Source: Candidatus Omnitrophota bacterium | GTDB lineage: Bacteria > Omnitrophota > Omnitrophia > Omnitrophales > Aquincolibacteriaceae | Reading direction: 5' to 3' | Assembly: GCA_043808175.1 (NCBI GenBank) | Contig: JAZDFE010000007.1 | Coordinates: forward strand, 16,099 to 80,098 | DNA: 64,000 nt | Part shown: piece after piece, positions 16,398-64,000 of the stretch | How the letters are laid out: each line of letters begins with the position of its first letter | How positions within the stretch are numbered: the stretch's first letter is position 1 | Notes under the pieces: model-generated | What the model was told of the DNA's origin: nothing | What the model saw: only the letters and a program-made list of their open reading frames with translations | Databases searched by the model: none | Translations under genes and position numbers: made by a program

Positions 16398-17945
16398 ATG
16401 GCGGGAAAACGGAAGATTCACATATTTGACACCACGCTGAGAGACGGCGAGCAATCACCCGGGGCGTCGCTTACTCCGGATGAGAAGCTGACGATCGCGC
16501 GCCAGCTTGAGCGGTTGAATATCGATGTGATCGAAGCCGGGTTTCCGGCATCTTCACTTGGGGAGATGAAGGCCGTCTCCATGATCGCGGAAAATGTGCG
16601 TAAGCCCGTGATCTGCGGTCTTTCGCGCATGATCCCACGGGATATCGATGCCTGCCGACGGGCCCTTGAAAAGGCCGCGAGAAAACGCCTGCATCTTTTT
16701 CTCGCAACCTCCCAGATTCATCGTGAGTTCAAGCTCAAAAAAAACAAAAGAGAGATCTTAGCGATGGTAGAACAGAACATCAAATCTGCGGCTAAGGATT
16801 TTAAGCAGATCGAATTTTCGCCTGAGGATGCGTCACGTACCGAACGGGACTTTTTGGCGGGGACCGTCCGGGCCGCGATCCATGCGGGGGCCACTTCGAT
16901 CAATATTCCGGATACTGTGGGTTACACGGTCCCGCAGGAATTCACGGAGCTGATCCGTTTCTTGATCAAGAAAAACCCCGAATTGGGCAAAAAGGTCGTG
17001 CTTTCGGTTCATTGTCATAACGACCTCGGTCTCGCGACAGCCAATTCCTTGGCCGCCGTCCTGGCGGGTGCGAATCAGGTGGAGTGTACGGTGAATGGGA
17101 TTGGCGAACGTGCGGGGAACGCTTCGCTGGAAGAGATCGCCATGGCGATCGATACGCGCGCGGATTTCATGAATTGTTACACAGATATCAAACTCTCTGA
17201 GATCACCAAAGCTTCGCGGTTGGTATCTAATTTGACGGGAATGGTCGTTCAGCCTAACAAAGCGATCGTCGGGCGCAATGCCTTCTGGCATGCTTCCGGC
17301 ATCCATCAGGACGGGGTGCTCAAGAAGCGCCAGACCTATGAGATCATGGACCCGAAAAAGATCGGGCTTTCCGGCAACCAGCTGATGCTCGGGAAACTCT
17401 CGGGCAAGCACGCCTTTGAGGTGCGTGTGAAAAAGCTCGGGTTCCGCTTGGGGCTCAAGGAACTCGATCAGGCTTTCGTTCAATTCAAGGCTCTCGCGGA
17501 CAAGAAGAAATATATTTTTGACGAAGATCTCGAGGCCATCTTGCAAAATGAAATCGCCAAGATCCCGGAGACCTGGAAGCTGGCATCCATGAAGGTGGTG
17601 TCTGAAACCGGCGCAAAGCCTCATGCTCAGATCAAGCTTTCTTATGAAGGCAAGGCCAAGCAAGCCGTTTCGAACGGAGACGGTCCCGTGGATGCTTGTT
17701 ACAAGGCCATTGAGAAGATCGTCAATTCCAGGGCACAACTTATTCATTACGGTCTGCAATCGGTCACGAGCGGCAAAGATGCTTTGGGCGAAGTGCTGGT
17801 TAAGCTTGAGATCGGTGGCAAGGAAGTGACCGGTCGCGGCACGAGTACTGACATTATTGAAGCCAGCGTACGCGCCTATCTTTTCGCGATTAATAAAGTT
17901 TCGGCGAACTCTCAACGGGCCGCGAGCCAGTCTTCCCCGGTGTGA
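16398..17945 (+). CDS. leuA: 2-isopropylmalate synthase / (R)-citramalate synthase family. The start is refined to MAGKRKIHIFDTTLRDGEQ.
   Basis: The HMGL-like TIM barrel (HCHNDLGLATANSLAAVLAGA) and a C-terminal LeuA dimerisation/regulatory domain are present. Confidence 0.8.
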   Translation: MAGKRKIHIFDTTLRDGEQSPGASLTPDEKLTIARQLERLNIDVIEAGFPASSLGEMKAVSMIAENVRKPVICGLSRMIPRDIDACRRALEKAARKRLHLFLATSQIHREFKLKKNKREILAMVEQNIKSAAKDFKQIEFSPEDASRTERDFLAGTVRAAIHAGATSINIPDTVGYTVPQEFTELIRFLIKKNPELGKKVVLSVHCHNDLGLATANSLAAVLAGANQVECTVNGIGERAGNASLEEIAMAIDTRADFMNCYTDIKLSEITKASRLVSNLTGMVVQPNKAIVGRNAFWHASGIHQDGVLKKRQTYEIMDPKKIGLSGNQLMLGKLSGKHAFEVRVKKLGFRLGLKELDQAFVQFKALADKKKYIFDEDLEAILQNEIAKIPETWKLASMKVVSETGAKPHAQIKLSYEGKAKQAVSNGDGPVDACYKAIEKIVNSRAQLIHYGLQSVTSGKDALGEVLVKLEIGGKEVTGRGTSTDIIEASVRAYLFAINKVSANSQRAASQSSPV

Positions 17946-18952
17946 AAAAAGACAAGCCCAATTCCCCATCAAAGAATTTAAAGGTCAATTGGACTAGTCC
18001 TGGCAACCTTCAGTCAGGAAAAAATAGATGCCAGGACAAGACCTTCAAGCTTTACGGAATCTTCGGGTACCCCCTTTCGCACACTCTTTCTCCGACCATG
18101 CACGAAGCCGCGTTCCGCAGGCTCGGGATCGACGCCCACTATATCGTTCTGGAATTGATTCCCGCCGATTTCAAAAAGCTCATGCGCCAATCCTCCGAAC
18201 TTTCTCTTTCAGGTTTTAATGTCACAGTGCCCTACAAAGAAACAGTGATGAAAGATCTCGCCGGCATCCGGCCGGAAGCGCGTGTCATCGGCGCGGTCAA
18301 TACGGTTTTCAAACAAGGGAAACGGTGGATAGGTACCAATACGGACATGGAAGGTTTTCTTACGGCGATCATGAAGGAAGGCGGGTTTCGCCCGTCCGGG
18401 AAAAAGGCCGTGATCCTCGGGGCCGGTGGCGCGGCACGCGCGGTGGTTTATGGTCTTTCGAGAGAGGGAATCCGGGAGATCCTGATCGCGGATTGCTTTC
18501 CCCAAAAAGCCCAGAAGATCGCGAGTGACATGCGGAAACTTTTCAAACGGGTGAATTACTATGCTGCAATGGCCGGAACACCGGAGGTCAAGGAGGCTCT
18601 TCAAAAAGCCGATGTTATTATCAACGCGACTCCGATCGGGCTGAAGTCTCAAGACCCAAAGGTGGTCCCGGAAAGATGGATCCCTCGAGCGGGAAGGGCT
18701 CGAGGAACTCCGCGGGGGCGAGCCTCGAAAAGATCAAGCTGCGGCTCGATGCTTTTTATGGATCTTATTTATAATCCGGCCGTGACACCTTTTTTAAAGA
18801 TGGCAAAAAAGAAAGGGCATCGGACCCTAAACGGGCTCGGGATGCTGCTTCATCAAGGCGCTCGGGCTTTGGAGCTTTGGACGGGACGAAAGGCGCCGGT
18901 GGGCGTGATGCGCCGGGCGCTTCTTAACGCTCTAAGCGAACGGGGGAAATGA
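17942..18952 (+). CDS. aroE: Shikimate dehydrogenase carrying two insertions. One is an N-terminal family-1 repeat element of about 30 aa. The other is an internal Arg-rich insert of about 20 aa.
   Basis: AroE signature is present (LYGIFGYPLSHTLSPTMHEAAF ... ILGAGGAARAVVYGL ... NATPIGL ... DLIYNP). The GTG start overlaps the leuA stop (GTGA). Confidence 0.8.
   Translation: MKKDKPNSPSKNLKVNWTSPGNLQSGKNRCQDKTFKLYGIFGYPLSHTLSPTMHEAAFRRLGIDAHYIVLELIPADFKKLMRQSSELSLSGFNVTVPYKETVMKDLAGIRPEARVIGAVNTVFKQGKRWIGTNTDMEGFLTAIMKEGGFRPSGKKAVILGAGGAARAVVYGLSREGIREILIADCFPQKAQKIASDMRKLFKRVNYYAAMAGTPEVKEALQKADVIINATPIGLKSQDPKVVPERWIPRAGRARGTPRGRASKRSSCGSMLFMDLIYNPAVTPFLKMAKKKGHRTLNGLGMLLHQGARALELWTGRKAPVGVMRRALLNALSERGK
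17954..18040 (+). repeat. Family-1 intragenic repeat, copy A. It is about 87-90 bp, lies in-frame in the aroE 5' coding region and translates as PNSPSKNLKVNWTSPGNLQSGKNRCQDKTF.
   Basis: By eye it is roughly 75% identical to copies at about 39917-40005 and 40244-40331. An internal inverted repeat is present: gtcctggca (17996-18004) pairs with tgccaggac (18028-18036). Confidence 0.8.
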
Positions 18953-29640: not shown

Positions 29641-29716
29641 ACAATGCGGGCCACGATCCACGCGTCACGCTTTTCGTGGCCCGTAGTTCATGACACAAGG
29701 AACGCGAAGGCAACAA

Positions 29717-31102
29717 ATGATTAGAACCTTTTTATACAATCTGGGGTTCATGGTGTTCGGGGTCTTTTATTTCCCGATTTTCCTGACAAAACTCCGTCAA
29801 GCCGAGGATCCGGGGGCGCTGTGGAAAGAACGCCGTGGGATCTTTCCGAAGGACTGGGCCGGAAAATTTGCCGGAAAAAAGATCGTCTGGCTTCACGCCG
29901 TGAGCGTGGGAGAAGTGATGGCCATTGAAAAGTTCATTCACGAATGGCTTGCCTCCGCGCCGGGATATGAACTGTTGCTAACGACCGTTACGCCGACCGG
30001 GCAGAGGATCGCGAAAAAACTCGCGGGCGAGCGGGTCCATGTCTGTTATTTCCCGTTCGACCTCACCCCGGTCGTGAAACATTTTCTCGATCTTTTCAGG
30101 CCGGTTTGTTTGTTGCTCGTGGAGACCGAGATCTGGCCGAACCTCTTGACCGAAGCCAAGCGACGGAACATTCCGGTGGGTGTAGTGAACGCCCGGCTCT
30201 CGGAACGTTCATTCAAAAGGTATAAGCTTTTTCCATGGCTTTTTAAACCCTTGTGGGAAAAACTAGATTTTGTGCTCACACAATCGGAAGAAGATGCGGC
30301 CCGTTTTCGGAAGTTGGGCGTTACGGAAGGATCCGTGCGAGATATGGGGAATATGAAATTCGATCAGGCAGAATGGGCCGCCGAGGGTGGGGTGGACGTG
30401 GCGGGATTGCGGCAGGCCTGGGGGTATGCCGCCGAAGATCTTGTATGGATCGCGGGCAGCACGCATCCGGGGGAAGAAGAAATGCTCATGGCCGCTTTTA
30501 AAGCGTTGCGCGAACGGTTTCCGGCGCTCAAATTGATCCTCGCGCCGCGCCACATCGAACGTTCGGAGAGTCTTTTGAAGCAATTGGGAAAATATGGTTT
30601 TAACATGGCTTCGTCAACAAGCCCAGTTCTCCATCAAAAAAAAGAAGGCCCGGGACCTGATCTGCAGATCCTGGATCGGCTGGGCATTCTCAAGAATCTG
30701 TACGGAATCGCAGACTTTGTGTTCATGGGCGGGAGCCTGATCCCTCACGGGGGTCAGAATCCGATCGAGCCCGCGCGTTTTAGCAAAGCTATCCTCCATG
30801 GACCACATGTTTTTAACTTTCACAAGATCTACCACCAGCTCGATCATGACGGTGGCGCTTTCAGGATCTCGGCTCCGGACGAACTGTCGTCCGCGGCGGC
30901 GGAGATCCTCGCGAATGAAAGCAGGCGTCATGAAATGGGGCAAAAAGCTTTTCAGATCGTCAACCGTCTACGGGGTGCCAGCAAACGTCAGGCCGGGTGG
31001 ATCCTGACGTTTCTCAGGAGCCGGTACTCTCAAGAAAGGATTACAAGCAATGGACAGCATGAAGAATTACTTTCGTCTCTTGGCAGAGGACAAGCAAAAT
31101 GA
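29717..31102 (+). CDS. waaA: 3-deoxy-D-manno-octulosonic acid (Kdo) transferase.
   Basis: An N-terminal membrane anchor and a GT30 core are present (WLHAVSVGEVMA, TVTPTGQ, LVETEIWPNL, FVGGSLIPHGGQNPIEPA). The 3' end overlaps lpxK by about 50 nt. Confidence 0.85.
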   Translation: MIRTFLYNLGFMVFGVFYFPIFLTKLRQAEDPGALWKERRGIFPKDWAGKFAGKKIVWLHAVSVGEVMAIEKFIHEWLASAPGYELLLTTVTPTGQRIAKKLAGERVHVCYFPFDLTPVVKHFLDLFRPVCLLLVETEIWPNLLTEAKRRNIPVGVVNARLSERSFKRYKLFPWLFKPLWEKLDFVLTQSEEDAARFRKLGVTEGSVRDMGNMKFDQAEWAAEGGVDVAGLRQAWGYAAEDLVWIAGSTHPGEEEMLMAAFKALRERFPALKLILAPRHIERSESLLKQLGKYGFNMASSTSPVLHQKKEGPGPDLQILDRLGILKNLYGIADFVFMGGSLIPHGGQNPIEPARFSKAILHGPHVFNFHKIYHQLDHDGGAFRISAPDELSSAAAEILANESRRHEMGQKAFQIVNRLRGASKRQAGWILTFLRSRYSQERITSNGQHEELLSSLGRGQAK

Positions 31103-34048: not shown

Positions 34049-36141
34049 AGGTGATGCAGCTCTTGCCGGCGCTTGAGCTCGGCGGGACCGAGCGCGGGGT
34101 GGTGGATCTTGCGAAAGCCATGAAAAAAGAAGGGCACGCGACCCTGGTCGTTTCATCCGGCGGGGCGCTTGTGGCCGAACTCCAGAAGATCGGGATCCCG
34201 CATTACGGGCTACCCGTGCATCAGAAATCTCTGGCGAGTTTATTCCTGGTCGAAGAGCTGGTGAAGATCATCCAGCGGGAGCGCGTGGACATCATTCACG
34301 CCCGCAGCCGCGTCCCGGCCTGGCTCGGGTGGCTCGCGGCCCGCAAGACCGGCATTCCGTTCATCACGACCTGCCACGGACATTATTCTGTTCATCCGAT
34401 GAGCTTTGTCATGGGGTGGGGGAAGCGTGTGATCGTGGCATCGCATGCCATCGGCCGGAGAATGATCGATGAATTTCATGTTCCGCCGGACAGGATCCGT
34501 TTGGTCCCGCGCGGTGTGGATCTTTCACAGTTCACATTCTCATTCGCGAAATTCGAAAAGCACAAGGGGCCGATGAGGATCATCCATATCGGACGGTTCT
34601 CGCCGGCCAAAGGCCAGGTGGAATTCCTTAAGGCCGTTCATTTATTGCGTAGCCGGCTCCCTCATTTTGAAGTTTGGATCGTCGGCTCCGAAGCCCGCGG
34701 CAGGCACCGTTACACAGATCTGATGAAAAAAACGGTGCAACAGTTCGGGCTTGAGACCTGCGTCAAGATCCTCCCGCCGACGCGTGACGTCGCAGGACTT
34801 TTGGCCCAGTCCGATCTTCTGGTGCTTTCCTCGCTGATCCCGGAGCCTTTTGGGCGGGTGGTCATTGAGGCCGGTGCCGTGGGAACCCCTGTGGTCGCGA
34901 CCTGGTTGGGCGGCGTGCGGGATATTATTGATCACAACGAGACAGGCCTTCTATTCCCTCCAAGAAATATTCCCGCGATGGCCGAGGCCATGTACGAACT
35001 TTTGACGGACCGGGAAAAGGCCAAAGCATTCGCGGTAAAGCTTCGAAAAAAAGTAGAAGAGCAATTTAATCTGGAACAAATGGTCCGGAAAACGCTCGAG
35101 ATCTATGAGGAAGTCCGCAAGCGGCGGAGGATCCTCGTGATCAAGCTTGGGGCCATGGGAGATCTCATCCTGGTCGTGCCGAGTTTAAGGATGCTCAAGG
35201 AGCGCTTCCCGGATGCGGTGATCACGCTCCTGGTCGATCGCAAACTCGCGCCGATCGTGTCGGCATGTCCTTACCTGGACGATATGATCCTGGTGGACCG
35301 GAAAAAACTTTCGAACATTTTTTATCTTTTAAAGACCGCCCGGCGCATCCGCCGGGAAGGATTTGACATGTCCATCGATCTCCATAACAACAAATGGACG
35401 CATCTTCTGGCGTATCTCGGCGGCGCGGTCCAGCGTTTCGGTTTTGAGCGCGGGAGATGGGGATGGCTTTTGAACCGTCCCGACAGGACCTTTGAGGTCG
35501 GGGATTCGCCTCTCCGCCATCAATTCCGGGTGCTGTCCAAGGCCGGGGTCATCAAATTCGATGACATGTTGGAGCTTTGGGTGAAATCCGAGAGCCTTGA
35601 AAAAGCACGCCAGATGATCGGTACGCTCGAGCCCAAAGAATCTACCCGGATCGTCGGGTTCGTGATGGGGTCCAGCCCCAACTGGCCGAGCAAACGCTGG
35701 CCTTCGGAGCATTTTGTCGATTTGGCAAAAAGGCTCTTTGAAAAATATGACGCGCGGATCGTCCTTATCGGCTCTCCTGAAGAAACGGATCTCGGGACTC
35801 CTTTTTATTCTTTCGGGTCCGGCAAGATCCTCGATCTCATCGGGAAAACAGCGTTGGAGGAACTGCCGGCTTTTTTCAAACAGCTTCATTTGGTGGTAAC
35901 AGGGGATACGGCGCCGCTTCACATGGCTGCGGCCATGAATGTCCCGGTCGTGGCCTTGTTTGGCCCGACGGACGCCAAACGTCATATTCCTCCCGGAAAA
36001 AAGATCGACGCGCTCTCACATCATCTGCCATGCCAGCCCTGCTACGAGGGTGTCTGCAAAGCCAAAGAAACGAAGGCCTGTCTTACGCATATTTCCGTGG
36101 AAGAAGTTTTCGAACATTGCCAAAGAGCGCTCGTGCCATGA
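34045..36141 (+). CDS. Fusion of a GT4 (GT-B, RfaG-like) glycosyltransferase of about 370 aa to a GT9 heptosyltransferase-like domain of about 330 aa.
   Basis: GT4 motif is present (EPFGRVVIEAGAVGTPVVATWLGGVRDII). The GT9 part reads RILVIKLGAMGDLILVVPSLRMLKERFPDA and GDTAPLHMAAAMNVPVVALFGPTD. Confidence 0.75.
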   Translation: MKVMQLLPALELGGTERGVVDLAKAMKKEGHATLVVSSGGALVAELQKIGIPHYGLPVHQKSLASLFLVEELVKIIQRERVDIIHARSRVPAWLGWLAARKTGIPFITTCHGHYSVHPMSFVMGWGKRVIVASHAIGRRMIDEFHVPPDRIRLVPRGVDLSQFTFSFAKFEKHKGPMRIIHIGRFSPAKGQVEFLKAVHLLRSRLPHFEVWIVGSEARGRHRYTDLMKKTVQQFGLETCVKILPPTRDVAGLLAQSDLLVLSSLIPEPFGRVVIEAGAVGTPVVATWLGGVRDIIDHNETGLLFPPRNIPAMAEAMYELLTDREKAKAFAVKLRKKVEEQFNLEQMVRKTLEIYEEVRKRRRILVIKLGAMGDLILVVPSLRMLKERFPDAVITLLVDRKLAPIVSACPYLDDMILVDRKKLSNIFYLLKTARRIRREGFDMSIDLHNNKWTHLLAYLGGAVQRFGFERGRWGWLLNRPDRTFEVGDSPLRHQFRVLSKAGVIKFDDMLELWVKSESLEKARQMIGTLEPKESTRIVGFVMGSSPNWPSKRWPSEHFVDLAKRLFEKYDARIVLIGSPEETDLGTPFYSFGSGKILDLIGKTALEELPAFFKQLHLVVTGDTAPLHMAAAMNVPVVALFGPTDAKRHIPPGKKIDALSHHLPCQPCYEGVCKAKETKACLTHISVEEVFEHCQRALVP

Positions 36142-36174
36142 TTTTCCTTAATCAAAAAAATAAATGGGTGATCA

Positions 36175-36307
36175 TGATAGCCCAAACTTTTCATTTATTT
36201 TCCAAAACGGTAGTTTGGACAGCCCCAATTTCAACTCCGTTGAAATTGATAGATATTGGGACAGTCCAAGTCACCATCCATGAAGAACAAAGGAAGACTT
36301 GGGCGCT
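36175..36307 (+). repeat. Family-2 intergenic repeat, copy R3. It is hairpin-rich and ends at the start codon of the next heptosyltransferase.
   Basis: It shares the gtccaagtc...agacttgggcg module with the copy at 63150-63192. Hairpins: caatttcaa/ttgaaattg and ccaagtc/gacttgg. Confidence 0.6.
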
Positions 36308-37330
36308 ATGAAGATCCTCGCCGTGATGAAAAATTGGCTTGGGGACCTGCTTTTCCAGATGCCCGCGCTAGATTTGATCAAACAAAAATACCCCGAAGCC
36401 TCGATCGTTTGTATCGCACCCGAAAGGTGCCGGGAAATCCTCGAGGCTTACCCGGTGGTTTCGGAGGTCCTGAGCTTTGACGAAAAAAGCACGCACCGTT
36501 CCTGGCTCGCGAGAATGCGATTCGTTCTGGAACTGAGAAAGCGCGGACCCTGGGACCAGGGCTATCTCTTTCATCGTTCCCGTTCGCGAGCGGCGTTTCT
36601 CGCGCTCGCTGGAGTGAAAGAACGCATCGGTTACGGAAAAGGGAGAAAAGGATTCTTGTCGTGGGCGGTCGAAGAGCCCGCGTTGCCGATGCACCAGCTG
36701 GATTATTTTTTTAATATGATGAAAAGGGCCGGATTTGAGCTTCCCGCGGAAAGGGAATACCGGTTTTTTTACAAAGAAGAAGATGAACAAGTCGCGGGTG
36801 AGATTCTCGAGATGTATGGTATCGGAAAGAGCACGAAATACATTTGCTTTCATTTAGGTGCGAATTGGGAGCCCAAGCGCTGGCCGGTCGCGCATTTTGC
36901 CGCGCTCGCAGAGAAGATCGAAGCGAAATGGCAACTTCCGGTCGTAGTAACCGGCTCTCAAAATGACGAGCCCCTCTTTGAAGATTTCCTATCCAGGGTC
37001 CGTCGTGCGAAGATCATTTCTTTGATCGGAAAAACAGGACTACGCATTTCCGCCGTGATCTACAAGCATGCGGGATGTCTTGTGACCGGAGATTCCGGGC
37101 CTATGCACATCGCTTCCGGAGTCGGCGCCCCGGTCGTTGCCCTTTTTGGTCCCACGGACCCGAAACTCACCGGACCCCGCGGGAGAGGCGAGAGCATCGT
37201 GTTGCAATATGTTCCGTCAGGTTACATGGTCCCTTTTTTCGGCAAGGAACTTCCGGCAGAAGGCTGGCTTTCGCGCATCACTCCGAAGGAGGTTTTGAAT
37301 GCGGTCGAGAAAATCTTGAGAAAAACATGA
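36308..37330 (+). CDS. GT9 ADP-heptose:LPS heptosyltransferase (WaaF/WaaC family). The start is refined to ATG, giving MKILAV.
   Basis: GT9 motifs are present (MKILAVMKNWLGDLLFQMPALDLIKQKYPEA and GDSGPMHIASGVGAPVVALFGPTDP). Confidence 0.8.
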   Translation: MKILAVMKNWLGDLLFQMPALDLIKQKYPEASIVCIAPERCREILEAYPVVSEVLSFDEKSTHRSWLARMRFVLELRKRGPWDQGYLFHRSRSRAAFLALAGVKERIGYGKGRKGFLSWAVEEPALPMHQLDYFFNMMKRAGFELPAEREYRFFYKEEDEQVAGEILEMYGIGKSTKYICFHLGANWEPKRWPVAHFAALAEKIEAKWQLPVVVTGSQNDEPLFEDFLSRVRRAKIISLIGKTGLRISAVIYKHAGCLVTGDSGPMHIASGVGAPVVALFGPTDPKLTGPRGRGESIVLQYVPSGYMVPFFGKELPAEGWLSRITPKEVLNAVEKILRKT

Positions 37331-38289
37331 ATATTCTTGTCGTGACGTTGAGCAATTTCGGGGACGTGATCCTGACGACCCCCGTGATCATGGCACTTGC
37401 CCGGAAATATCCCGAGGCTCGGATCACGGTGGTGGTGGGGCCGCGCGCGAGAAGTGTTCTTCAGAGAAGCCCCGATATCCATAAGATCGTGATCTACGAC
37501 AAGAAGGCTTCTTTCCTGGAAAAATTAAAATTCATCGCAGAACTTCGCAAAGTAAAATATCACTGCGTCGTGGACCTGCGTAATACCGCCATTCCGTTCC
37601 TGGTCTCCTGCGGCAAGAAAACCCCTCTTTTCAGGAAATTCACCAAGGTCAACATGCGGGATCGTCACCTCGAAATGCTCGCGACAGTGGAACCCGGCAT
37701 TCCCCATCCCTCTCCTTTTCATTTTTTTAACCAAGAGGATGAGATCTTTGCGATGCGCACTCTGGATGCTGCGGGGATCACGGAAAAGAAAGGATGGATC
37801 CTGGTGGCGGCAGGGGCGGCCAGCGAGAGAAAACGGTGGCCGGTTCAATCCTTTAAGGAAGTGATCCAAGCGCTTCACGAGAGGACCGGCAAGAAGATCC
37901 TCCTGGTGGGAACCCTTAATGAAAGACCGGTGGCCGACAGCATTCTGAAAAAACTTCCAGGAATCGTCGGGATCCTTTGCGGTGACCTTGTTTTGCCCGA
38001 GACGGCAGCGCTTATCGCGAACGCTTCGCTTGTGATCGCTAACGACAGCGCGATCATGCATCTTGGGTTCGAATTGGGCACGCCGACTGTCGGGATCTTC
38101 GGACCGACAGACCATGAGAAATACGGACACGAAGGTCCGAAATTCCGCATTGCGCGGGAAAAGGCCCAAGGTTGTGCCTGCAGGTCCGATCAATTGCCTC
38201 GCGCCGAGCGGAGTTGTTTTCACGGACTTAAACCCGAAAAAGTGATCGGACTTTCTTTGGAGCTTCTGAATGCCACTCAATCTTCCTGA
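37327..38289 (+). CDS. GT9 heptosyltransferase. The true ATG start, MNILVVTL, overlaps the upstream stop (ATGA). The listed 404-aa ORF from 37075 is an out-of-register extension.
   Basis: GT9 motifs are present (MNILVVTLSNFGDVILTTPVIMALARKYPEA and NDSAIMHLGFELGTPTVGIFGPTDHEKYG). Confidence 0.8.
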   Translation: MNILVVTLSNFGDVILTTPVIMALARKYPEARITVVVGPRARSVLQRSPDIHKIVIYDKKASFLEKLKFIAELRKVKYHCVVDLRNTAIPFLVSCGKKTPLFRKFTKVNMRDRHLEMLATVEPGIPHPSPFHFFNQEDEIFAMRTLDAAGITEKKGWILVAAGAASERKRWPVQSFKEVIQALHERTGKKILLVGTLNERPVADSILKKLPGIVGILCGDLVLPETAALIANASLVIANDSAIMHLGFELGTPTVGIFGPTDHEKYGHEGPKFRIAREKAQGCACRSDQLPRAERSCFHGLKPEKVIGLSLELLNATQSS

Positions 38290-40666
38290 CACTCCGCGCA
38301 TTCTCATCACGCGCACCGATCGCATCGGGGACCTCGTCCTCACCACGCCGCTCTTCAAAGCCTTGCGGGAAAAATTCCCGAAAGCCTGGATCGCGGCGGT
38401 TGTGTTCCTCGAACACCGCGAAATCGTACAGGAAAATCCTTTTCTGGATGAGGTGATCCTCTATGATAAAAAAGGGAGCGAGCGCGGTCTTTGGGGGCAG
38501 TTCTGTTTTAGCCAAAAACTCCGGAACAAAAAATTTAATGTGGTGATCCATGCCCATGGTACGAACAGGATGCATCTTGCCGCGTGGTTCGCGGGGATCC
38601 CCCTGCGCATAGGTTACGCGCGCCGCGCGCCGTGGACGCTCACGCATGTTCATCCTTATAATAAAAAAGAAGGAAAAAAACAGGAGGCCGAATATCTCTT
38701 TGAGCTTCTGGATCTTTTGGGCGTGACCCCTCCCAAAGAGATCGAGACTTTTTTCCCCATCACGGACCGATCCGTCCGCTCTTTCGAGAGTTTGCGTGTG
38801 TTTCGCAAAATCCCGTACGATCGGCCCTGGATCGTTCTCAATCCCTCGGCGAGCGATGTGACCAAAATGTGGCCGGCGGAGCGCTTTGCCGAACTTGTGA
38901 CCCGGATCCAAAAGAATCATCCAAGCGTTTTTATTGCGATAGGGACCGTCCAGGACCGTTCTCTCATCGAAAGATTGATCAAAAACACTCCGGTTCCGGT
39001 CTTTGATCTGAGCGGAAGACTTTCCCTTGGAATGCTAGGCGCGCTTTTGAAGCGATCGGCCCTGCTTGTCTCCAACGATTCCGGGCCCGTGCATATCGCG
39101 ACGACGGTTGGCACGCCGGTGGTTTCCATTTTTGGGAGGTATGAGGCAGGTCTTGGGCCCAACCGCTGGCAACCGCTTGGGGAGCGTTCGCGCGTGGTCG
39201 CGAAGGATGTTTCGCGCATTCCGGAAGCCGTGCGGAAGTTCACCTACATCGATGAGATCACGGTGGATGAAGTTTTTCGGACCGCAAATGATCTATTGGG
39301 TAGTAGCGGCAAAAAGTTTTTGCGTGAAGAGGAGCCTTCCACGAAAGGGATATCGGGTGGAGGAGGGAGGATGGCAGAAACGGTTCCTCGCCATCCGCCA
39401 TCCGTCATCCGCCATCCGCAAAAGATCCGCAGGGTTTTGATCGTGCACCCCTACGGAATCGGGGATCTTCTCTTTGTGACGCCAGTTATGCGGGCGCTTC
39501 GTCTCGTCCCGACGGTCGAGACCGTCGATCTTCTTTTGGGATCCCGCACGCGGGAGGTCGTGGAGAATAATCCTCACATCAATGATATTTTCGTCGTGGA
39601 TAAGGACCGCGCTCATCGTCAGACTTGGCTCGAAAATCTTCGCGACCACTGGAAACTGGGCCGGAAACTCCGGGCCAAGCATTACGACCTGATCCTGGAT
39701 TATTCGCTGCAGCGCGAACATGCTTTTTGGGGTCGGTTCTTTCTCGGTATTCCGAAATGCGCGGGGTTTGCGTATAAAAAGCGCGCGACATTCCACAATA
39801 TCCGTTTTCCACTTCCAGAGGGGTTCTGGAAACGGCATGCCGTGGATTTTTATTGTGATCTTGCGGAGGCAGCCAGGATTCCCGTGGAAGACCGTTTTCT
39901 GGAATATTTTTTTCCCAAGCCCCATTCTCCATCAGAAGGATCAAAGGTTAATGGGACTAGCCCTGGCGACCTTTTAGGAAAAGAAAATAGATGCCAGGGC
40001 AAGCACGAATCTTTGATCGAAGCAGAGATTGCCGGAAAGTTAAAACTTCTGCCGGAACGTTTTCTCGCGGTCGCTCCCGGCGGCGGGGATTCGTGGGGGA
40101 AGGAAGCTTCTTTCAAGCGCTGGCCTGTGAAGTATTTCGCGGCATTGATCGAAAAACTTCAAATGGAACGAAACATCCGCGGCGTCGCCATCCTGGGCAG
40201 TCGTTCCGAGCGGGCGCTGTGTGAAGAATTGCAGGCGATGATCGAGCCCCATTCTCCATCAAAAGCATCAAAGGTTAATGGGACTAGTCCCGGCAACCTT
40301 TTAAGAAACGAAAATAGAAGTCAGGACAAGCCACCCTCAGTCGTGCTGGCGGGGGAGACAAGCCTCACGCAAACGGCCATGGTCCTCAAAAAGTCCGCGC
40401 TTTTTGTCGGCAACGACGGAGGCCTGGTTCATTTGGCGCATGCGCTTCATGTGCCGCTCCTGGCTTTTTACGGGCCCGTGCCGCCCGAAGTGTACGGACC
40501 CTACCCGCCATCGCCTGATGCGATCGCCATCTTCAAACGAGGATTAAAATGCCGTCCGTGTTACTACAAATTCCGCTATCATAAAAAGTGTCCAACGATC
40601 GCGTGTCTTACAGATTTAAAGCCGGAAGAGGCGCTTGAACAGACAAAGGGTCAGGTGCCTTTTTGA
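38270..40666 (+). CDS. 798-aa ORF with two complete GT9 heptosyltransferase domains in tandem. The second begins at an in-frame AGGAGG ribosome-binding site plus ATG at 39371. The second domain carries two family-1 repeat insertions.
   Basis: Domain 1 reads ILITRTDRIGDLVLTTPLFKALREKFPKA ... NDSGPVHIATTVGTPVVSIFGR. Domain 2 reads RVLIVHPYGIGDLLFVTPVMRAL ... GNDGGLVHLAHALHVPLLAFYGP. There is no stop between the two domains. Confidence 0.7.
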   Translation: MPLNLPDTPRILITRTDRIGDLVLTTPLFKALREKFPKAWIAAVVFLEHREIVQENPFLDEVILYDKKGSERGLWGQFCFSQKLRNKKFNVVIHAHGTNRMHLAAWFAGIPLRIGYARRAPWTLTHVHPYNKKEGKKQEAEYLFELLDLLGVTPPKEIETFFPITDRSVRSFESLRVFRKIPYDRPWIVLNPSASDVTKMWPAERFAELVTRIQKNHPSVFIAIGTVQDRSLIERLIKNTPVPVFDLSGRLSLGMLGALLKRSALLVSNDSGPVHIATTVGTPVVSIFGRYEAGLGPNRWQPLGERSRVVAKDVSRIPEAVRKFTYIDEITVDEVFRTANDLLGSSGKKFLREEEPSTKGISGGGGRMAETVPRHPPSVIRHPQKIRRVLIVHPYGIGDLLFVTPVMRALRLVPTVETVDLLLGSRTREVVENNPHINDIFVVDKDRAHRQTWLENLRDHWKLGRKLRAKHYDLILDYSLQREHAFWGRFFLGIPKCAGFAYKKRATFHNIRFPLPEGFWKRHAVDFYCDLAEAARIPVEDRFLEYFFPKPHSPSEGSKVNGTSPGDLLGKENRCQGKHESLIEAEIAGKLKLLPERFLAVAPGGGDSWGKEASFKRWPVKYFAALIEKLQMERNIRGVAILGSRSERALCEELQAMIEPHSPSKASKVNGTSPGNLLRNENRSQDKPPSVVLAGETSLTQTAMVLKKSALFVGNDGGLVHLAHALHVPLLAFYGPVPPEVYGPYPPSPDAIAIFKRGLKCRPCYYKFRYHKKCPTIACLTDLKPEEALEQTKGQVPF
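39917..40005 (+). repeat. Family-1 intragenic repeat, copy B. It is in-frame in GT9 domain 2 and translates as PHSPSEGSKVNGTSPGDLLGKENRCQGKHE.
   Basis: It is homologous to copies A and C. The internal inverted repeat is gccctggcg (39960-39968) pairing with tgccagggc (39992-40000). Confidence 0.8.
40244..40331 (+). repeat. Family-1 intragenic repeat, copy C. It is in-frame in GT9 domain 2 and translates as PHSPSKASKVNGTSPGNLLRNENRSQDKPP. Its hairpin arm is degenerate.
   Basis: By eye it is about 80% identical to copy B over some 88 bp (cccattctccatca...aaggttaatgggactag...aaaatagaag). Confidence 0.8.
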
Positions 40667-52210: not shown

Positions 52211-52350
52211 TCCCAATTTTTATCAATTGAAGCGAAGCGGTCCCAATCCCAATCAATCGAAGCGTAGCTGAGATTGGGGCCGTCTCGACTACCATAAATG
52301 AAAAGAAAATAAAAGTCGCGACGGAAATTGGGGCAATCCTGATTACCATT
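52209..52350 (+). repeat. Family-2 intergenic repeat, copy R1, between hpf and ptsN.
   Basis: It shares two modules with copy R2 at 63085-63230: gtcccaa-N4-tatcaatt...agcgg and ca(t)aa(a)tgaaaagaaaa-aaaag...cggaaattgggg. Confidence 0.6.
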
Positions 52351-52412
52351 CATCAAAAAAAATGAAAGTCAGGATAGTTCCACAACCTTTTTCAATCAGG
52401 AGGAATACATCC

Positions 52413-54164: not shown

Positions 54165-54255
54165 TGGGGCCATGATGTTCAAGTCTTTATTTTTTTCATG
54201 AATGGCGACTTGGACCGCCATGATTTTCGATTCGTTTTTTTAATTAAGGAAAATC

Positions 54256-54552
54256 ATGACAAAACGACCTAAAAAAATCAAGCAAGAGACGATCGAACGG
54301 ATTTTTATGATTGGCAACAAACTGGGCCTTCACGCCCGGCCCGCCGCTGTTTTTGTCCAGACGGCAAATCGGTTTGAGGCGTCGGTCGAGGTTCAAAAAG
54401 ATGATATCAAGATCGATGGTAAATCGATCATGGGCATCATGACGCTTGCGGCTGAAATGGGTTCGTCGATCGCGGTGCGCGTGACCGGCAAGGACGCTGC
54501 GGAGGCCATGGAAGCGTTGGCCAAACTCATAGGATCTAATTTCGGGGAATAA
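54256..54552 (+). CDS. ptsH: Phosphocarrier protein HPr/NPr.
   Basis: The active-site His region is present (GLHARPAAVFV). Confidence 0.8.
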   Translation: MTKRPKKIKQETIERIFMIGNKLGLHARPAAVFVQTANRFEASVEVQKDDIKIDGKSIMGIMTLAAEMGSSIAVRVTGKDAAEAMEALAKLIGSNFGE

Positions 54553-60892: not shown

Positions 60893-62035
60893 ATGCAAAA
60901 TTTTATTTACAAAAATCCCACCGAGGTCCTTTTTGGCAAAGGCATGATCCGCGAGATCACGGGACGTGTTCCCAAAGATCTCGGCGTGCTTTTTCTTTAT
61001 GGCGGTGGATCGATCAAAAAGAACGGCGTCTACACGCAGGTCAAGGCCGCGCTCAAAGGCCATCGCGTGACCGAATTCGGCGGTGTCGAACCCAACCCGC
61101 TCTATGAAACCTGCCTTAAAGCCGTCGAGGTTGTTAAAAAGGAAAAGATCGGTTTTATCATGGCGGTGGGGGGTGGCTCGGTCCTGGACGCCGCGAAATT
61201 CATCGCGGCCGCAGCGTGCTTCAGCGGAGCAGATCCATGGACTATTCTTCTGGAAGACGGCGCCAATGTCAAAACAGCGCTCCCGATCGGCACCGTGTTG
61301 ACGCTTCCCGCGACGGGCTCCGAAGTGAACGGAAATTCTGTGATCTCCCGGGGGGCGACCCGGGAAAAGCTTTATTTTTTTTCGCCTCACGTGTTTCCCC
61401 GGTTCTCTGTCTTGGATCCCGAAACGACATTTTCATTACCCGTCAAGCAAGTGCGCAATGGGATCGTGGACGCGTTCGTGCACGTGATGGAGCAGTACAT
61501 GACATATCCGGCGCATGCTCCGCTCCAGGACCGGATGGCGGAATCGCTTCTTCAAACCTTGATCGAAGTGGCGCCTTTGGCCTTGAACAAGCCCAAGGAC
61601 TATGAGGCCCGCGCGACATTCATGTGGAGCGCGGCGCTTGCGTTGAATACTTTGATCGGTTGCGGCGTGCCGCAGGATTGGTCGACACACATGATCGCCC
61701 ACGAGTTGACCGCTTTTTACGGGCTTGATCACGCGGAAACCCTGGCGATTGTTCTTCCGGGGGTCTGGCAATATAAATTGACCGCAAAAAAGAAAAAACT
61801 GGAACAGTATGGGCAACGCATTTGGAATGTTAAGACCGCGAAAGAGGCCATCCTGAAAACCGAAACGTTTTTTCATTCCATGAAGATGCCGACGCGTCTT
61901 GGCGACTACAAGATCTCCGCCAAGGAGGCCGCTCGCAAAGTGCGTGAACGCTTCAAAGAGAGAGACTCTGTTTTTGGTGAACACGGCGACATTACGCCTG
62001 ATGCCGTGGCAAAGATCATTGCTTCCCGCGTCTGA
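60893..62035 (+). CDS. Iron-containing (group III) alcohol dehydrogenase.
   Basis: Fe-ADH motifs are present (GGGSVLDAAKFIAAA, GTGSEVN, and metal-binding His residues HMIAHELTAFYGLDHAETLAIVL). Confidence 0.85.
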   Translation: MQNFIYKNPTEVLFGKGMIREITGRVPKDLGVLFLYGGGSIKKNGVYTQVKAALKGHRVTEFGGVEPNPLYETCLKAVEVVKKEKIGFIMAVGGGSVLDAAKFIAAAACFSGADPWTILLEDGANVKTALPIGTVLTLPATGSEVNGNSVISRGATREKLYFFSPHVFPRFSVLDPETTFSLPVKQVRNGIVDAFVHVMEQYMTYPAHAPLQDRMAESLLQTLIEVAPLALNKPKDYEARATFMWSAALALNTLIGCGVPQDWSTHMIAHELTAFYGLDHAETLAIVLPGVWQYKLTAKKKKLEQYGQRIWNVKTAKEAILKTETFFHSMKMPTRLGDYKISAKEAARKVRERFKERDSVFGEHGDITPDAVAKIIASRV

Positions 62036-62059: not shown

Positions 62060-63079
62060 ATGACGAGCACAAAGATCATTTGCACGCTGGGTCCCGCTTC
62101 AAGCCGGGCCAATGTCCTGCGGCAGATGATGCGTGCGGGAATGGATGTGGTACGGCTTAATTTTTCCCACGGAACGCTTGCGGAGCACCGGGAGAAGATC
62201 TGTCTCATCAGAGCGCTGAACAAAAAATATCGCCGCCGCATCCAAATCCTGGGAGATCTCGAAGGTTATCGAATGAGGATTGGTGAGCTGAAGGGGCAGA
62301 AGCCGGTCGAGGTCAAGAAGCGGCAGATTCTCTGGCTCACGACGGAAAACACGGTCGGAGAAAATTCCCATATTCCCTTTGATTGGGTGGGTTCTTTGCG
62401 ACCTATCAAACCAGGCCAGCTTATCTACATTGACGACGGTCTTATTGCCCTCAAAGTCGAGGCTCGTGATCAAAAAAATCTCAAGACTCGCGTGATCGTT
62501 GGAGGTGCGATCAAAGAACGCAAAGGAATCAATATGCCTGGCGTGCAATTGGATGTCACGGGGCTGACCCGGAAGGACAGGGAGGACATTCATTTTTGCA
62601 TCGAGCATAAAGTGGATTATATCGCACAATCTTTCGTACGGAATAAAAGGGATATTTTAGATCTCCGGTCTCATCTGAAAAGCCACTCCCACGAATGCGA
62701 CGTGATCGCCAAGATTGAGAACCGGGAAGGGATCCGAAATATCGATGAAATCATAAGCGTTTGCGAAGGGATCATGGTCGCACGCGGGGATATGGGGATC
62801 TCTGTTCCGATTTATGAAGTGCCCTCGATTCAGAAGAAGATCATTAAGAAATGCAATAAGGCGAAGAAATTCGTGATCACGGCGACCCAGATGCTTGAGA
62901 GCATGACGGAACATCCCATCCCGACCCGCGCCGAAGTCAGTGATGTGGCGAACGCAATTCTCGATGGAACGGACTACGTGATGCTTTCCGCCGAATCTGC
63001 CGCTGGCCTTTATCCCGTTCAATGCGTTGAAATGATGAGCCAGATCATTAAATTTACCGAAAAAAATCTTAGACAATGA
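62060..63079 (+). CDS. pyk: Pyruvate kinase, short form (339 aa; TIM-barrel plus lid domains only). The C-terminal allosteric domain of about 120 aa is absent.
   Basis: PK signatures are present ([53 protein letters not shown]). The ORF ends at TGA 63077-63079, exactly at the edge of a repeat insertion. Confidence 0.8.
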
Positions 63080-63084
63080 CTGTC
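63058..63084 (+). repeat. Left copy of a roughly 26-bp direct repeat (gaaaaaaatcttagacaATGActgtc). It contains the pyk stop codon. The right copy at 63221-63247 contains the ABC-F start codon.
   Basis: A 16-bp exact core, aatcttagacaatgac, is present in both copies. Flanks differ at 2 positions. Confidence 0.75.
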
Positions 63085-63230
63085 CCAACACCTATCAATT
63101 TCTACGTAGCGGCACTTGATTCTGTTTCAAAATGAAGGTAATCAGTGCCGCCCAAGTCGCCATTGATTAAAAGAAAACAAAGACTTGGGCGGAAATTGGG
63201 CGGTTATCATCAACCCTAATGGAAAAGAAT
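63085..63230 (+). repeat. Family-2 intergenic repeat, copy R2. It has an 11-bp perfect stem (ccgcccaagtc/gacttgggcgg) and a second hairpin (gcggcacttgatt/aatcagtgccgc).
   Basis: It is homologous to R1 (52209-52350) and R3 (36175-36307); see the shared modules listed there. Confidence 0.65.
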
Positions 63231-63238
63231 CTTAGACA

Positions 63239-64000
63239 ATGACCGTCTTATTACAAGTCAATGAATTGCACAAGGCCTATGGCGCTGTAACGATCCTCGA
63301 TAACGCCACCGCGTCATTCGGAGATGATCAAAAGATCGGTGTGATCGGCCGCAACGGGGCCGGGAAATCCACGCTTTGCCGTATCATCACCGGACACGAA
63401 TCGGCTGAAAGCGGTACCGTCACGCGCAACGCTGCGTTGCGCCTCTCCTATCTCGAACAGCATGATACGTTCAAGCCCGGGGAGCGGGTGGTGGACTTCC
63501 TGATGCGCACCACGCGGAGCGAGCATTGGGAGTGCGGGCAGATCGCCGCGCGGTTCCAGCTTGAAAATGAGATCCTTGAAGAATCCGTACGGAATCTTCC
63601 GGGAGGTTTTCAGACGCGCGTGAAGCTTGCGGCAATGCTTTTGGGCGACCCCAATTTCCTGATTCTTGACGAACCTAGCAACTATTTAGATTTGAGCACG
63701 TTGATCCTTTTAGAAAATTTTCTGCTCGATTTCAAAGGCGGGTATCTGGTCGTCTCCCACGATCGGGAATTCTTGAAGCGGACCTGTGATCACACGCTTG
63801 AGGTCGAGAACGGAGGGCTTGCCCTTTATCCCGGGGACATTGAAGAGTATTTCGAATTCAAGGAGGAGCAACTCGCCCAGAAACAGGCCTATAACCGCGG
63901 TCTCGACAAGAAACGGGAACAACTCCAGATCTTCATTGACCGGTTCAAGGCGAAGGCTTCCACGGCGACGCGTGCACAGTCGAAAATGAAACAACTCGCA
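63239..64000 (+). CDS. ABC-F family ATP-binding protein (N-terminal part; continues beyond the window).
   Basis: The start reads MTVLLQVNELHKAYGAVTIL. Walker A (GRNGAGKST), the signature (LPGGFQTRVKLA) and Walker B (LILDEPSNYLD) are present, then the inter-domain linker begins. Confidence 0.8.
   Translation, partial: MTVLLQVNELHKAYGAVTILDNATASFGDDQKIGVIGRNGAGKSTLCRIITGHESAESGTVTRNAALRLSYLEQHDTFKPGERVVDFLMRTTRSEHWECGQIAARFQLENEILEESVRNLPGGFQTRVKLAAMLLGDPNFLILDEPSNYLDLSTLILLENFLLDFKGGYLVVSHDREFLKRTCDHTLEVENGGLALYPGDIEEYFEFKEEQLAQKQAYNRGLDKKREQLQIFIDRFKAKASTATRAQSKMKQLA

Follow-up and report, generated by a model that had tools for sequence, protein, structure and literature searches.

Four hairpin-rich spacers in a 64,000-nucleotide stretch of DNA from a Candidatus Omnitrophota bacterium (contig JAZDFE010000007.1; the whole stretch is referred to here as the window) are probably insertions of a selfish, non-autonomous mobile repeat family of one Candidatus Omnitrophota clade. 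Three of these spacers, R1, R2 and R3, had been described in a sequence-only reading as copies of one repeat lying close to start codons; the fourth, R4, is added here. The family is recognised by a two-hairpin unit with covarying stems. Its copies are nested within each other, differ in presence between close relatives, lie in frame inside genes and follow a rule that ties the left flank of a unit to the unit's own 3' end. Together these observations suggest a mobilising enzyme, movement on single-stranded DNA and the absence of a function for the host.

A two-hairpin unit in mosaic spacers

The motif GTCCCAATnnnnATCAAT occurs four times in the window (≤2 mismatches) where 0.56 occurrences are expected, and 0/100 shuffles reach four. 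The loop motif CCATnnATnAAAAGAAAAnAAAG is found three times against an expectation of 0.02. A covariance model trained on copies from other genomes was run over all 64 kb with filters off. Its matches were confined to R1-R3, R4 and three copies of a repeat named 'Family 1', and the highest scores were 93.8 bits at 52238-52324 and 89.3 bits at 36178-36264. The motif counts and the covariance model bear out the earlier description of R1, R2 and R3, both in their positions and in the modules they share. All three copies are real, and to them must be added R4 at 54165-54255, between a CofD-like gene and HPr.

The anatomy of the unit was derived as a consensus by comparing copies across the window and other loci, which carry L numbers here. 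Close relatives were located through PtsI homologs, which also assign the window to Candidatus Omnitrophota. A complete unit is 84 nt long and carries two dissimilar hairpins in direct order, with hairpin 1 close to its 5' end and hairpin 2 at its 3' end. It opens with TCCCAAT and about six variable bases. Hairpin 1 follows, in which ATCAAT and six variable bases pair with six variable bases and ATTGG across a 3-nt loop, giving a 10-bp covarying stem. GGC comes next, then a linker trinucleotide at the foot of hairpin 2, whose 8-10-bp stem is variable in sequence (TCCnnAC/GTnnGGA) and encloses a conserved A-rich loop of ~21-27 nt (tACCATTnnnGAAAAGAAAAtAAAa). The terminal trinucleotide extends stem 2 by pairing with the linker. 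One subfamily retains a tandem G·A/A·G mismatch in hairpin 1.

Covariation was measured in an alignment of 95 units. The two helices together have 20 pairs, and 88.2% of their cells are paired, compared with 75.6% after shuffling and 25-43% when partners are slid. Changes on both sides were found in 18/20 helix pairs (300 cells), and the observed helix measures were not equalled in any of 500 shuffles (0/500).

Maintained stems would also be expected if the spacers were host-selected RNA modules, such as stabilisers, RNase sites, translational gates or attenuators, that co-regulate the genes of the phosphotransferase system (PTS), lipopolysaccharide (LPS) core and pyk/ABC-F junctions. The covarying stems and the conserved hairpin-2 loop suit such modules. 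So does the folding of the R3 and R1 spacers as RNA, which is better than that of dinucleotide shuffles (z = -3.3 and -3.45, respectively), and so does the excess of G-T wobbles over A-C mismatches in the stems (73 vs 44). This 73:44 ratio was also considered as a strand-specific discriminator between RNA-level and DNA-level structure, and was dropped as too weak. However, when two orthologous pairs, the R1 outer unit and R4, were compared by eye between the window and L001, their differences proved to be one-sided and non-compensating. For this reason we infer that diversification of active lineages, which need their hairpins in order to spread, gave rise to the covariation, and not selection on each resident copy.

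R3 contains a complete 84-nt unit on the minus strand (36178..36261), made up of TCCCAAT, hairpin 1 (CAATTTCAAC/GTTGAAATTG), GGGC, hairpin 2 (CCAAAC/GTTTGG) and the A-rich loop. The covariance model scores it at 89.3 bits (E = 1.4e-22) on the minus strand and at 30.2 bits on the plus strand, and nhmmer gives E = 5e-20. The perfect stem-loop that had been noticed in R3 (caatttcaa-ctccg-ttgaaattg) is hairpin 1 of this unit. Next to it on the plus strand lies a solo hairpin-2 module, GTCCAAGTC ... GACTTGGGC (36262..36305), matched by the hairpin-2 hidden Markov model at 36262-36304. Its loop has AAGGAAG (36290-36296), 12 nt ahead of the heptosyltransferase ATG at 36308. The left edge of R3 is formed by a third module, 'H3' (CATGAT...ATCATG; 36137..36176, plus strand), whose first arm includes the TGA stop (36139-36141) of a GT4-GT9 glycosyltransferase gene. 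Because TCATGA is its own reverse complement, the two H3 arms may be a direct duplication of an ATGA target rather than a true hairpin. Modules homologous to H3 occur in R4, L001, L099 and L061, and the same composite is bounded by ATGA copies at unrelated junctions of L099 (L099:1902) and L071. The CATGAT...ATCATG module sits at ATGA stop/start overlaps, and in one orientation it gives the downstream gene AAGGA(GG) and an ATG.

R1 and R2 had been taken for single copies, and both proved to be composites. R1 consists of two nested units on the plus strand. The 5' part of the outer unit (52211..52240) begins right after the hpf stop codon TAG and ends in its own hairpin-1 loop. The inner unit, a full 84 nt (52241..52324; 93.8 bits, E = 8e-24), is nested there in hairpin 1 of the outer unit with CGG on either side. 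The 3' part of the outer unit (52325..52377) supplies the hairpin-1 3' arm AAATTGGGGC and hairpin 2, ATCCTGATT/AGTCAGGAT, and the covariance model matches it at 52331-52377 with 34.5 bits. L001 and L002, with 97% identical PtsI, lack the inner unit, and L001 has the outer unit unbroken (83 nt, L001:7740-7821). On the 3' side of R1, the native ptsN leader and ribosome-binding site (52378-52412) are conserved with the empty site in L003.

R2 (63083..63204, plus strand; 37.6 and 17.5 bits) is a unit with two hairpin-2 modules interrupting its hairpin 1. The hairpin-1 5' half (63083-63112, plus strand) is followed by an inverted hairpin-2 module (63111-63149), a plus-strand hairpin-2 module, CCCAAGTC/GACTTGGG (63150-63192), and the hairpin-1 3' arm AAATTGGGCGG (63193-63203, plus strand). 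The modules that R2 has in common with R3 are hairpin 2. Those that it has in common with R1 are the hairpin-1 5' half, the hairpin-2 loop and the displaced hairpin-1 3' arm ('cggaaattggg'). R2 is bordered on the plus strand by two copies of a native sequence of ~38 nt. The left copy (63045..63082) holds the last codons and the stop (63077-63079) of a barrel-only pyruvate kinase gene; the right copy (63205..63245) holds the ABC-F leader and ATG (63240) and is homologous to the ABC-F leader of L001. The core of the duplication is 22/24 identical between the left copy and 63222-63245, and the duplication keeps the pyruvate kinase stop on one side and the ABC-F leader and start on the other. The pyruvate kinase gene itself (62060-63079) encodes the barrel domain without PK_C, and neither L001 nor L003 has it at this position. 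The 3' end of the gene, its last codons and stop, duplicates the leader and start of ABC-F, and the L001 spacer resembles a remnant of that 3' end.

R4 (54165..54255, minus strand) scores 21.3 bits and is common to the window and L001/L002. It is made of a hairpin-2 module (~54181-54219) and an H3 module (~54217-54258), the latter including AAGGA and the HPr ATG at 54256. Units and single hairpin modules insert beside and within each other, which produces mosaic spacers.

Judged by sequence, 'Family 1' belongs to the same superfamily as the units of R1-R4, since its three copies match the full two-hairpin model (41.5, 33.7 and 32.6 bits). All three are on the plus strand. The first (39917..40003; 41.5 bits) adds 29 codons in frame to heptosyltransferase II and is missing from most orthologs. 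The second (40244..40329; 33.7 bits) is in frame in the same gene; it is also present in P0124, P0125 and P0126 and absent from the other nine aligned orthologs. The third (17953..18039; 32.6 bits) lies at the junction ahead of the shikimate dehydrogenase open reading frame (ORF) 17942..18952 or inside its first 33 codons. It spans codons 4-33 of the longest version of that ORF, and the Pfam domain begins at residue 40. An ATG is present in the 3' arm of its hairpin 2, and either the unit may be translated or the start may have shifted downstream.

Insertion polymorphism and copies within genes

Presence of the copies was compared between close relatives, and it differs, as expected for mobile repeats. 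A region of ~20 kb is syntenic with 44-64 kb of the window. It carries six copies in L001/L002 (PtsI 97% identical; 21.7 kb in L001) and none in L003/L004 (PtsI 88%). Between hpf and ptsN the window has 202 nt, L001 has 117 nt and L003 has 25-34 nt. Between CofD and HPr there are 91 nt in both the window and L001 and 7 nt in L003. At the KpsF-LpxL junction the window and L003 each have 7 nt and L001 has 91 nt. The R3 site is empty in L007, where the glycosyltransferase genes overlap as 'ctcactATGAagatt', a plain ATGA stop/start. In the window 166 nt lie between two ATGA copies, and because the insert lies between them both the stop and the start codon survive.

The earlier description of R1-R3 as lying next to start codons is accurate (distances of 3, 36 and ~36-48 nt). 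This proximity follows from the extreme compaction of the operon junctions, which in relatives are 0-34 nt long or overlapping. The plus strand carries all long, non-overlapping ORFs of the window (1-64000) with a Pfam or ortholog assignment, and many pairs of neighbours share 1-8 nt (ATGA/GTGA).

Copies were also found inside genes. Among the 95 distinct units, 23 (~24%) lie in frames that are free of stops for at least 50 codons on each side, and 20/23 are in the sense orientation. These 20 are read in three frames (10/8/2), and 19/20 are exactly 84 nt, or 28 codons; VPIPINRSEAEIGAVQTTILEKK is an example of a unit-encoded peptide segment. The Fe-ADH of L001 has 436 residues compared with 380 in the window and L003. 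The excess consists of two exact 84-nt units in different frames (L001 16686-16772 and 16940-17026), and the window gene 60893..62035 represents the empty allele. Orthologs of the window gene 29690..31102 in L007 (6188-7726) and L042 (4489-5700) contain a unit-encoded insert of 28 residues, VPIPINRS.A.IGAVQ.TILE.K.KVWA, which is absent in the window. The L007 ortholog has a further insert of ~23 residues downstream of the first.

Heptosyltransferase II (39371..40666) has 431 residues compared with 356-370 in most orthologs, most of which are without inserts and some of which have one or two. In P0128 a peptide of Family 2, the earlier name for the repeat of R1-R3, is nested in the Family-1 insert of this protein (SPNTVQFSPRGNWGNPDYHNERENKSQDR). 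The AlphaFold model of heptosyltransferase II has a mean pLDDT of 87.6, and both Family-1 inserts are modelled as coil with pLDDT of 55-58 between confident elements. On this prediction, made for Family-1 copies, inserts within genes may become surface loops that the protein tolerates. The ORF that contains the two inserts (38270-40666, 798 aa) fuses two family-9 heptosyltransferases. Fused homologs of 740-747 aa are P0121-P0123, and other relatives have separate genes of ~360 aa.

The wider distribution was examined with an exact-pattern scan, TCCCAAT-N6-CAAT-N15-ATTGGGGC, over one genome per species. The pattern fixes TCCCAAT, CAAT and ATTGGGGC, so that invariance at these places is uninformative, and it leaves the covarying columns free. 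Among the matches listed there are at least 103 stretches in ~22 species-level metagenome-assembled genomes (MAGs), of which ~20 are labelled Omnitrophota/Omnitrophica or 'uncultured bacterium', and two contigs are labelled otherwise. The latter are L032 (JAYVZE010000020.1, binned as Blastocatellia) and L084 (CAILAO010001019.1, 'uncultured proteobacterium'). The L084 copy is a genuine unit. These matches could be misbinned Omnitrophota contigs or could reflect rare transfer. With more than 100 further copies in ~22 Omnitrophota MAGs among the matches listed, the sequence-only reading was right to place the repeat among dispersed miniature elements in the broad REP/ERIC/Correia sense. It had staked that claim on copies outside the window and on modules exceeding shuffles, and both were found.

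In 0.86 Mb of fetched sequence there were 183 nhmmer matches and 164 hairpin-1 matches. Fifty-six 'solo hairpin 1' matches were considered as ends of a longer element and were rejected, as they are ordinary units with divergent hairpin-2 stems, for example CCTTGTC/GACAAGG. Mean identity between copies is 72% within a genome and 69% between genomes. Near-identical pairs (96-99%) are few and come from three MAGs. A BLAST search with R1 against 72,556 plasmids gave no match, and exact-protein look-ups of the heptosyltransferase and hpf returned nothing on record. The window has no tRNA or tmRNA gene.

The same comparisons bear on regulation. The sequence-only reading had proposed that the copies supply promoters or terminators. 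In a scan of R1-R4, promoter-like and terminator-like matches were not above shuffled expectation in any of the four spacers. It had further proposed that the copies, all in one orientation, co-regulate the genes of the PTS, LPS-core and pyk junctions. The copies are not all in one orientation, as the full unit of R3 (36178-36261) and R4 are on the minus strand. Between co-directional genes, 14 units are sense and 22 antisense; relative to the local majority gene strand, 21 intergenic copies are co-oriented and 36 anti-oriented (p = 0.06). Element-free junctions in relatives whose PtsI is 88-97% identical also count against co-regulation, as does the quarter or so of copies that lie within coding sequence. 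Rfam 15 at gathering thresholds matched no family anywhere in the window. Permissive Rfam matches to eukaryotic miRNA hairpins and to one CRISPR repeat model were sub-threshold (E = 0.07-0.7), at the level of chance, and were discarded.

Native leaders are kept downstream of R1 (ptsN) and R2 (ABC-F). In R3 and R4, AAGGAAG or AAGGA lies inside the element, 7-12 nt ahead of the start codon, so that the motif and the start codon stand in or beside a hairpin (R3 36290-36310, R4 54246-54258). This arrangement would suit an RNA module, and a local effect of single copies on translation, for example by providing a ribosome-binding site at 36290-36296, is possible. The arrangement seems to have arisen incidentally, when the element inserted into an ATGA overlap. 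A shared regulatory switch is not supported by any of these observations, and we regard host-selected RNA modules as a very unlikely explanation of the four spacers.

The flank rule and a proposed mode of movement

The left flanks of the 95 units were compared with their sequences. The trinucleotide to the left of the unit is the same as the unit's last three bases in 58/95 units, compared with a permutation mean of 17 and maximum of 28. The commonest left flanks are TAG (32), CGG (29), CAG (16) and CTG (6), which fit YNG. Because the terminal trinucleotide in stem 2 pairs with the linker, the left flank also tracks the linker. Pairs 44-91 and 46-89, which join the two, covary, and in 94/95 units flank position -3 complements linker column 46. 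The mutual information shared by flank, linker and terminus amounts to 0.7-0.99 bits, compared with ≤0.31 bits between the flank and other columns. A separate left-end guide upstream of hairpin 1 (columns 11-16) was sought and rejected, since it showed only weak subfamily linkage (mutual information ≤0.28 bits). The idea that TAG flanks mark stop codons as targets was rejected as well; TAG is the stop of an ORF of at least 80 codons in only 7/32 units.

A familiar source of such flanks is an ordinary MITE, a miniature transposable element with inverted repeats, that is, an internal-deletion derivative of an insertion sequence (IS) mobilised by the IS's DDE transposase, with TCC...GGA as its short terminal inverted repeats and a target duplication of 3 bp. 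The 3-nt direct repeat around 58/95 units would be that duplication, and the size of the unit is typical. The unit ends are 5'-TCC...GGA-3' if the last trinucleotide is excluded, and in the CCCAAC subfamily the ends agree at 6/7 positions (TCCCAAT / TCCCAAC). However, terminal complementarity over the family is weak. The mean number of matches is 5.5/12 without the last trinucleotide and 3.1/12 with it, compared with 3.7 in shuffled sequence, and falls short of the ~10 bp or more of a terminal inverted repeat. Moreover, the right copy of the supposed duplication base-pairs and covaries with an internal trinucleotide, and target duplication alone does not explain why an external flank should follow an internal site. 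In the 0.86 Mb of sampled loci no parent IS or transposase was seen. A MITE of this kind is therefore quite unlikely, if somewhat less so than an RNA module.

Hairpin-guided movement is a candidate mechanism. Miniatures of IS200/IS605 elements, the palindrome-associated transposable elements, have hairpins close to both ends and lack true terminal inverted repeats. They insert directly 3' of a short specific sequence which, together with the 3' end of the element, is related to an internal sequence at the foot of a hairpin. The Omnitrophota unit likewise has subterminal hairpins without terminal inverted repeats, and it appears to insert 3' of a short target that is related, with its own 3' end, to a hairpin-foot sequence. 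By this analogy a single-strand, hairpin-guided mechanism of the IS200/IS605 or RAYT type would fit both the architecture and the flank rule. The unit differs in that its left hairpin begins only ~14 nt inside the end, a separate left guide was not detected and the two hairpins are different. In addition, no TnpA/TnpB gene was found in the sampled loci, and the copies have no clear strand bias.

REP or REPIN elements served by a single-copy RAYT (Y1 HUH) transposase would be a specific form of such a system. Like them, the unit is built on hairpins, lacks long terminal inverted repeats and occurs in mosaic, BIME-like arrays, and the pairing of flank, terminus and linker resembles the guide logic of a Y1 transposase. 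CTAC, which is GTAG on the other strand, is found at the stem foot in 59/95 units. REP sequences, however, are defined as palindromes of 20-40 nt that bear an unpaired tag, GTAG or CGTC, on one end (PMC3733652), whereas the GTAG of the Omnitrophota unit lies within the hairpin-2 loop rather than forming an external tag, and is missing in 36/95 units. The dissimilar hairpins stand in direct orientation and are not inverted REP doublets, the hairpin-2 loop of ~25 nt is unlike REP, and many copies are intragenic. No RAYT-like ORF was present among the ORF families that recur across the sampled loci. There is little chance that the units are REP or REPIN elements in this strict sense.

We favour the following course of events for the selfish repeat family. 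An enzyme acting in trans would recognise both hairpins on one DNA strand. The 5' end of the unit would be joined directly 3' of a YNG that matches the unit's own terminal trinucleotide, which would itself be paired with the linker at the foot of hairpin 2. Copies would then persist where they are harmless, either in the short or overlapping junctions of compact operons or, as exact 28-codon in-frame insertions, in what become surface loops of proteins. The nearest mechanistic analogy would be the guide and cleavage-site logic of IS200/IS605-type single-strand transposition, or else an integration that depends on a shared core. Two readings of the flank rule accordingly remain. The target may be chosen by pairing with the linker, or the terminus may be inherited and an identical core required in the target. 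Covariation of flank, linker and terminus is also compatible with ordinary duplication combined with selection on the stem. It is conceivable, but on balance unlikely, that targets are chosen by base pairing in the full sense, with the linker trinucleotide specifying both the unit's own 3' cleavage site and the target YNG, and with sub-lineages retargeting by three mutations.

Several points weigh against a mobile family of this kind. Flank identity reaches 6-8 nt in many copies and ~38 nt at R2, which simple cut-and-join does not predict, and a 3-bp target duplication is another possible reading of the flank rule. Not every one of the 95 units represents an insertion of its own. The orientation trend, judged by the local gene strand as a proxy for replication, is weak and non-significant, and a clear strand bias would be expected of elements of the IS200/IS605 type. 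No recurrent transposase emerged when 786 ORFs from the 0.86 Mb of element-rich loci (8-kb blocks around matches) were clustered and the recurrent clusters run through Pfam. These clusters are response regulators and kinases, a DUF1016 N-terminal domain protein, an epimerase, MnmA, aminotransferases and a Peptidase_S74 protein. Current activity is supported only indirectly, because most copies have diverged (mean identity 72% inside one genome) and only ~6% of pairs from the same genome are more than 90% identical. Finally, all of the sequences are metagenome assemblies.

Relation to known repeats and meaning

Full-text literature searches returned no publication on such repeats in Omnitrophota. 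The family, for which no published description was found, falls in the known class of miniature hairpin repeats and behaves in frame like the Rickettsia palindromic elements (RPEs). RPEs are hairpin repeats that lie in frame in housekeeping genes, keep the ORF intact and have no known transposase (PMC10969869). They are the closest functional analogue of the Omnitrophota unit, and at most an analogue, as the host of the unit is Candidatus Omnitrophota and that of RPEs is Rickettsiales. Both are short hairpin repeats with no known transposase that lie between genes and in frame in unrelated housekeeping genes, and in both several related families coexist. In both, inserted peptides would occupy loops, on the Omnitrophota side by AlphaFold prediction of the Family-1 copies. 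The unit was set beside RPEs by description. It is 84 nt long compared with ~100-150 nt for RPEs, has two different hairpins and a conserved A-rich loop in place of one long palindrome, and follows a flank rule linking flanking and terminal trinucleotides.

With REP, BIME and REPIN sequences the family shares hairpin repeats in mosaic arrays of operon spacers, stems maintained by compensatory change and a proposed mobilisation on single-stranded hairpins. The differences are the lack of an external GTAG/CGTC tag (PMC3733652), the long hairpin-2 loop, the lack of inverted doublets and a distribution that is not confined to extragenic DNA, ~24% of units lying in long ORFs; no RAYT was found in the DNA sampled. 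Correia/NEMIS, ERIC and other MITEs with terminal inverted repeats are likewise small, dispersed and non-autonomous, often occupy gene junctions and occasionally genes, and can donate expression signals incidentally. Unlike these, the unit has no long terminal inverted repeats and no fixed duplication of the TA type. No IHF-site consensus was apparent by eye, the sampled loci yielded no parent IS, and resemblance to IHF sites and to integron attC sites was dropped, since by eye the consensus does not fit.

The family explains the odd hairpin-rich spacers and the insertions of 28-29 residues in conserved Omnitrophota genes, among them heptosyltransferase, Fe-ADH and the gene at 29690..31102. 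Gene callers and annotators of MAGs would otherwise take the units for novel domains, fused genes or regulatory RNAs. It also indicates that in-frame selfish repeats of the Rickettsia type are not restricted to Rickettsiales. The Omnitrophota are described as a phylum of ultra-small, probably host-dependent bacteria, and the finding lends support to the idea that compact genomes and small populations go together with tolerance of intragenic repeats. Because copy content differs between genomes whose PtsI is 97% identical, the insertions can serve as fine-scale strain markers.

The covariation of flank and linker is the one feature that could prove mechanistically new. Together with the terminus it offers a testable hypothesis for the choice of targets by orphan mini-elements, a question still open for RPEs. 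If base pairing does choose the target, the unit would be the smallest known 'programmable' mobile element. Since insertions add exactly 28 codons, the family would then also provide a steady supply of new surface loops in essential enzymes of a nanobacterial phylum.

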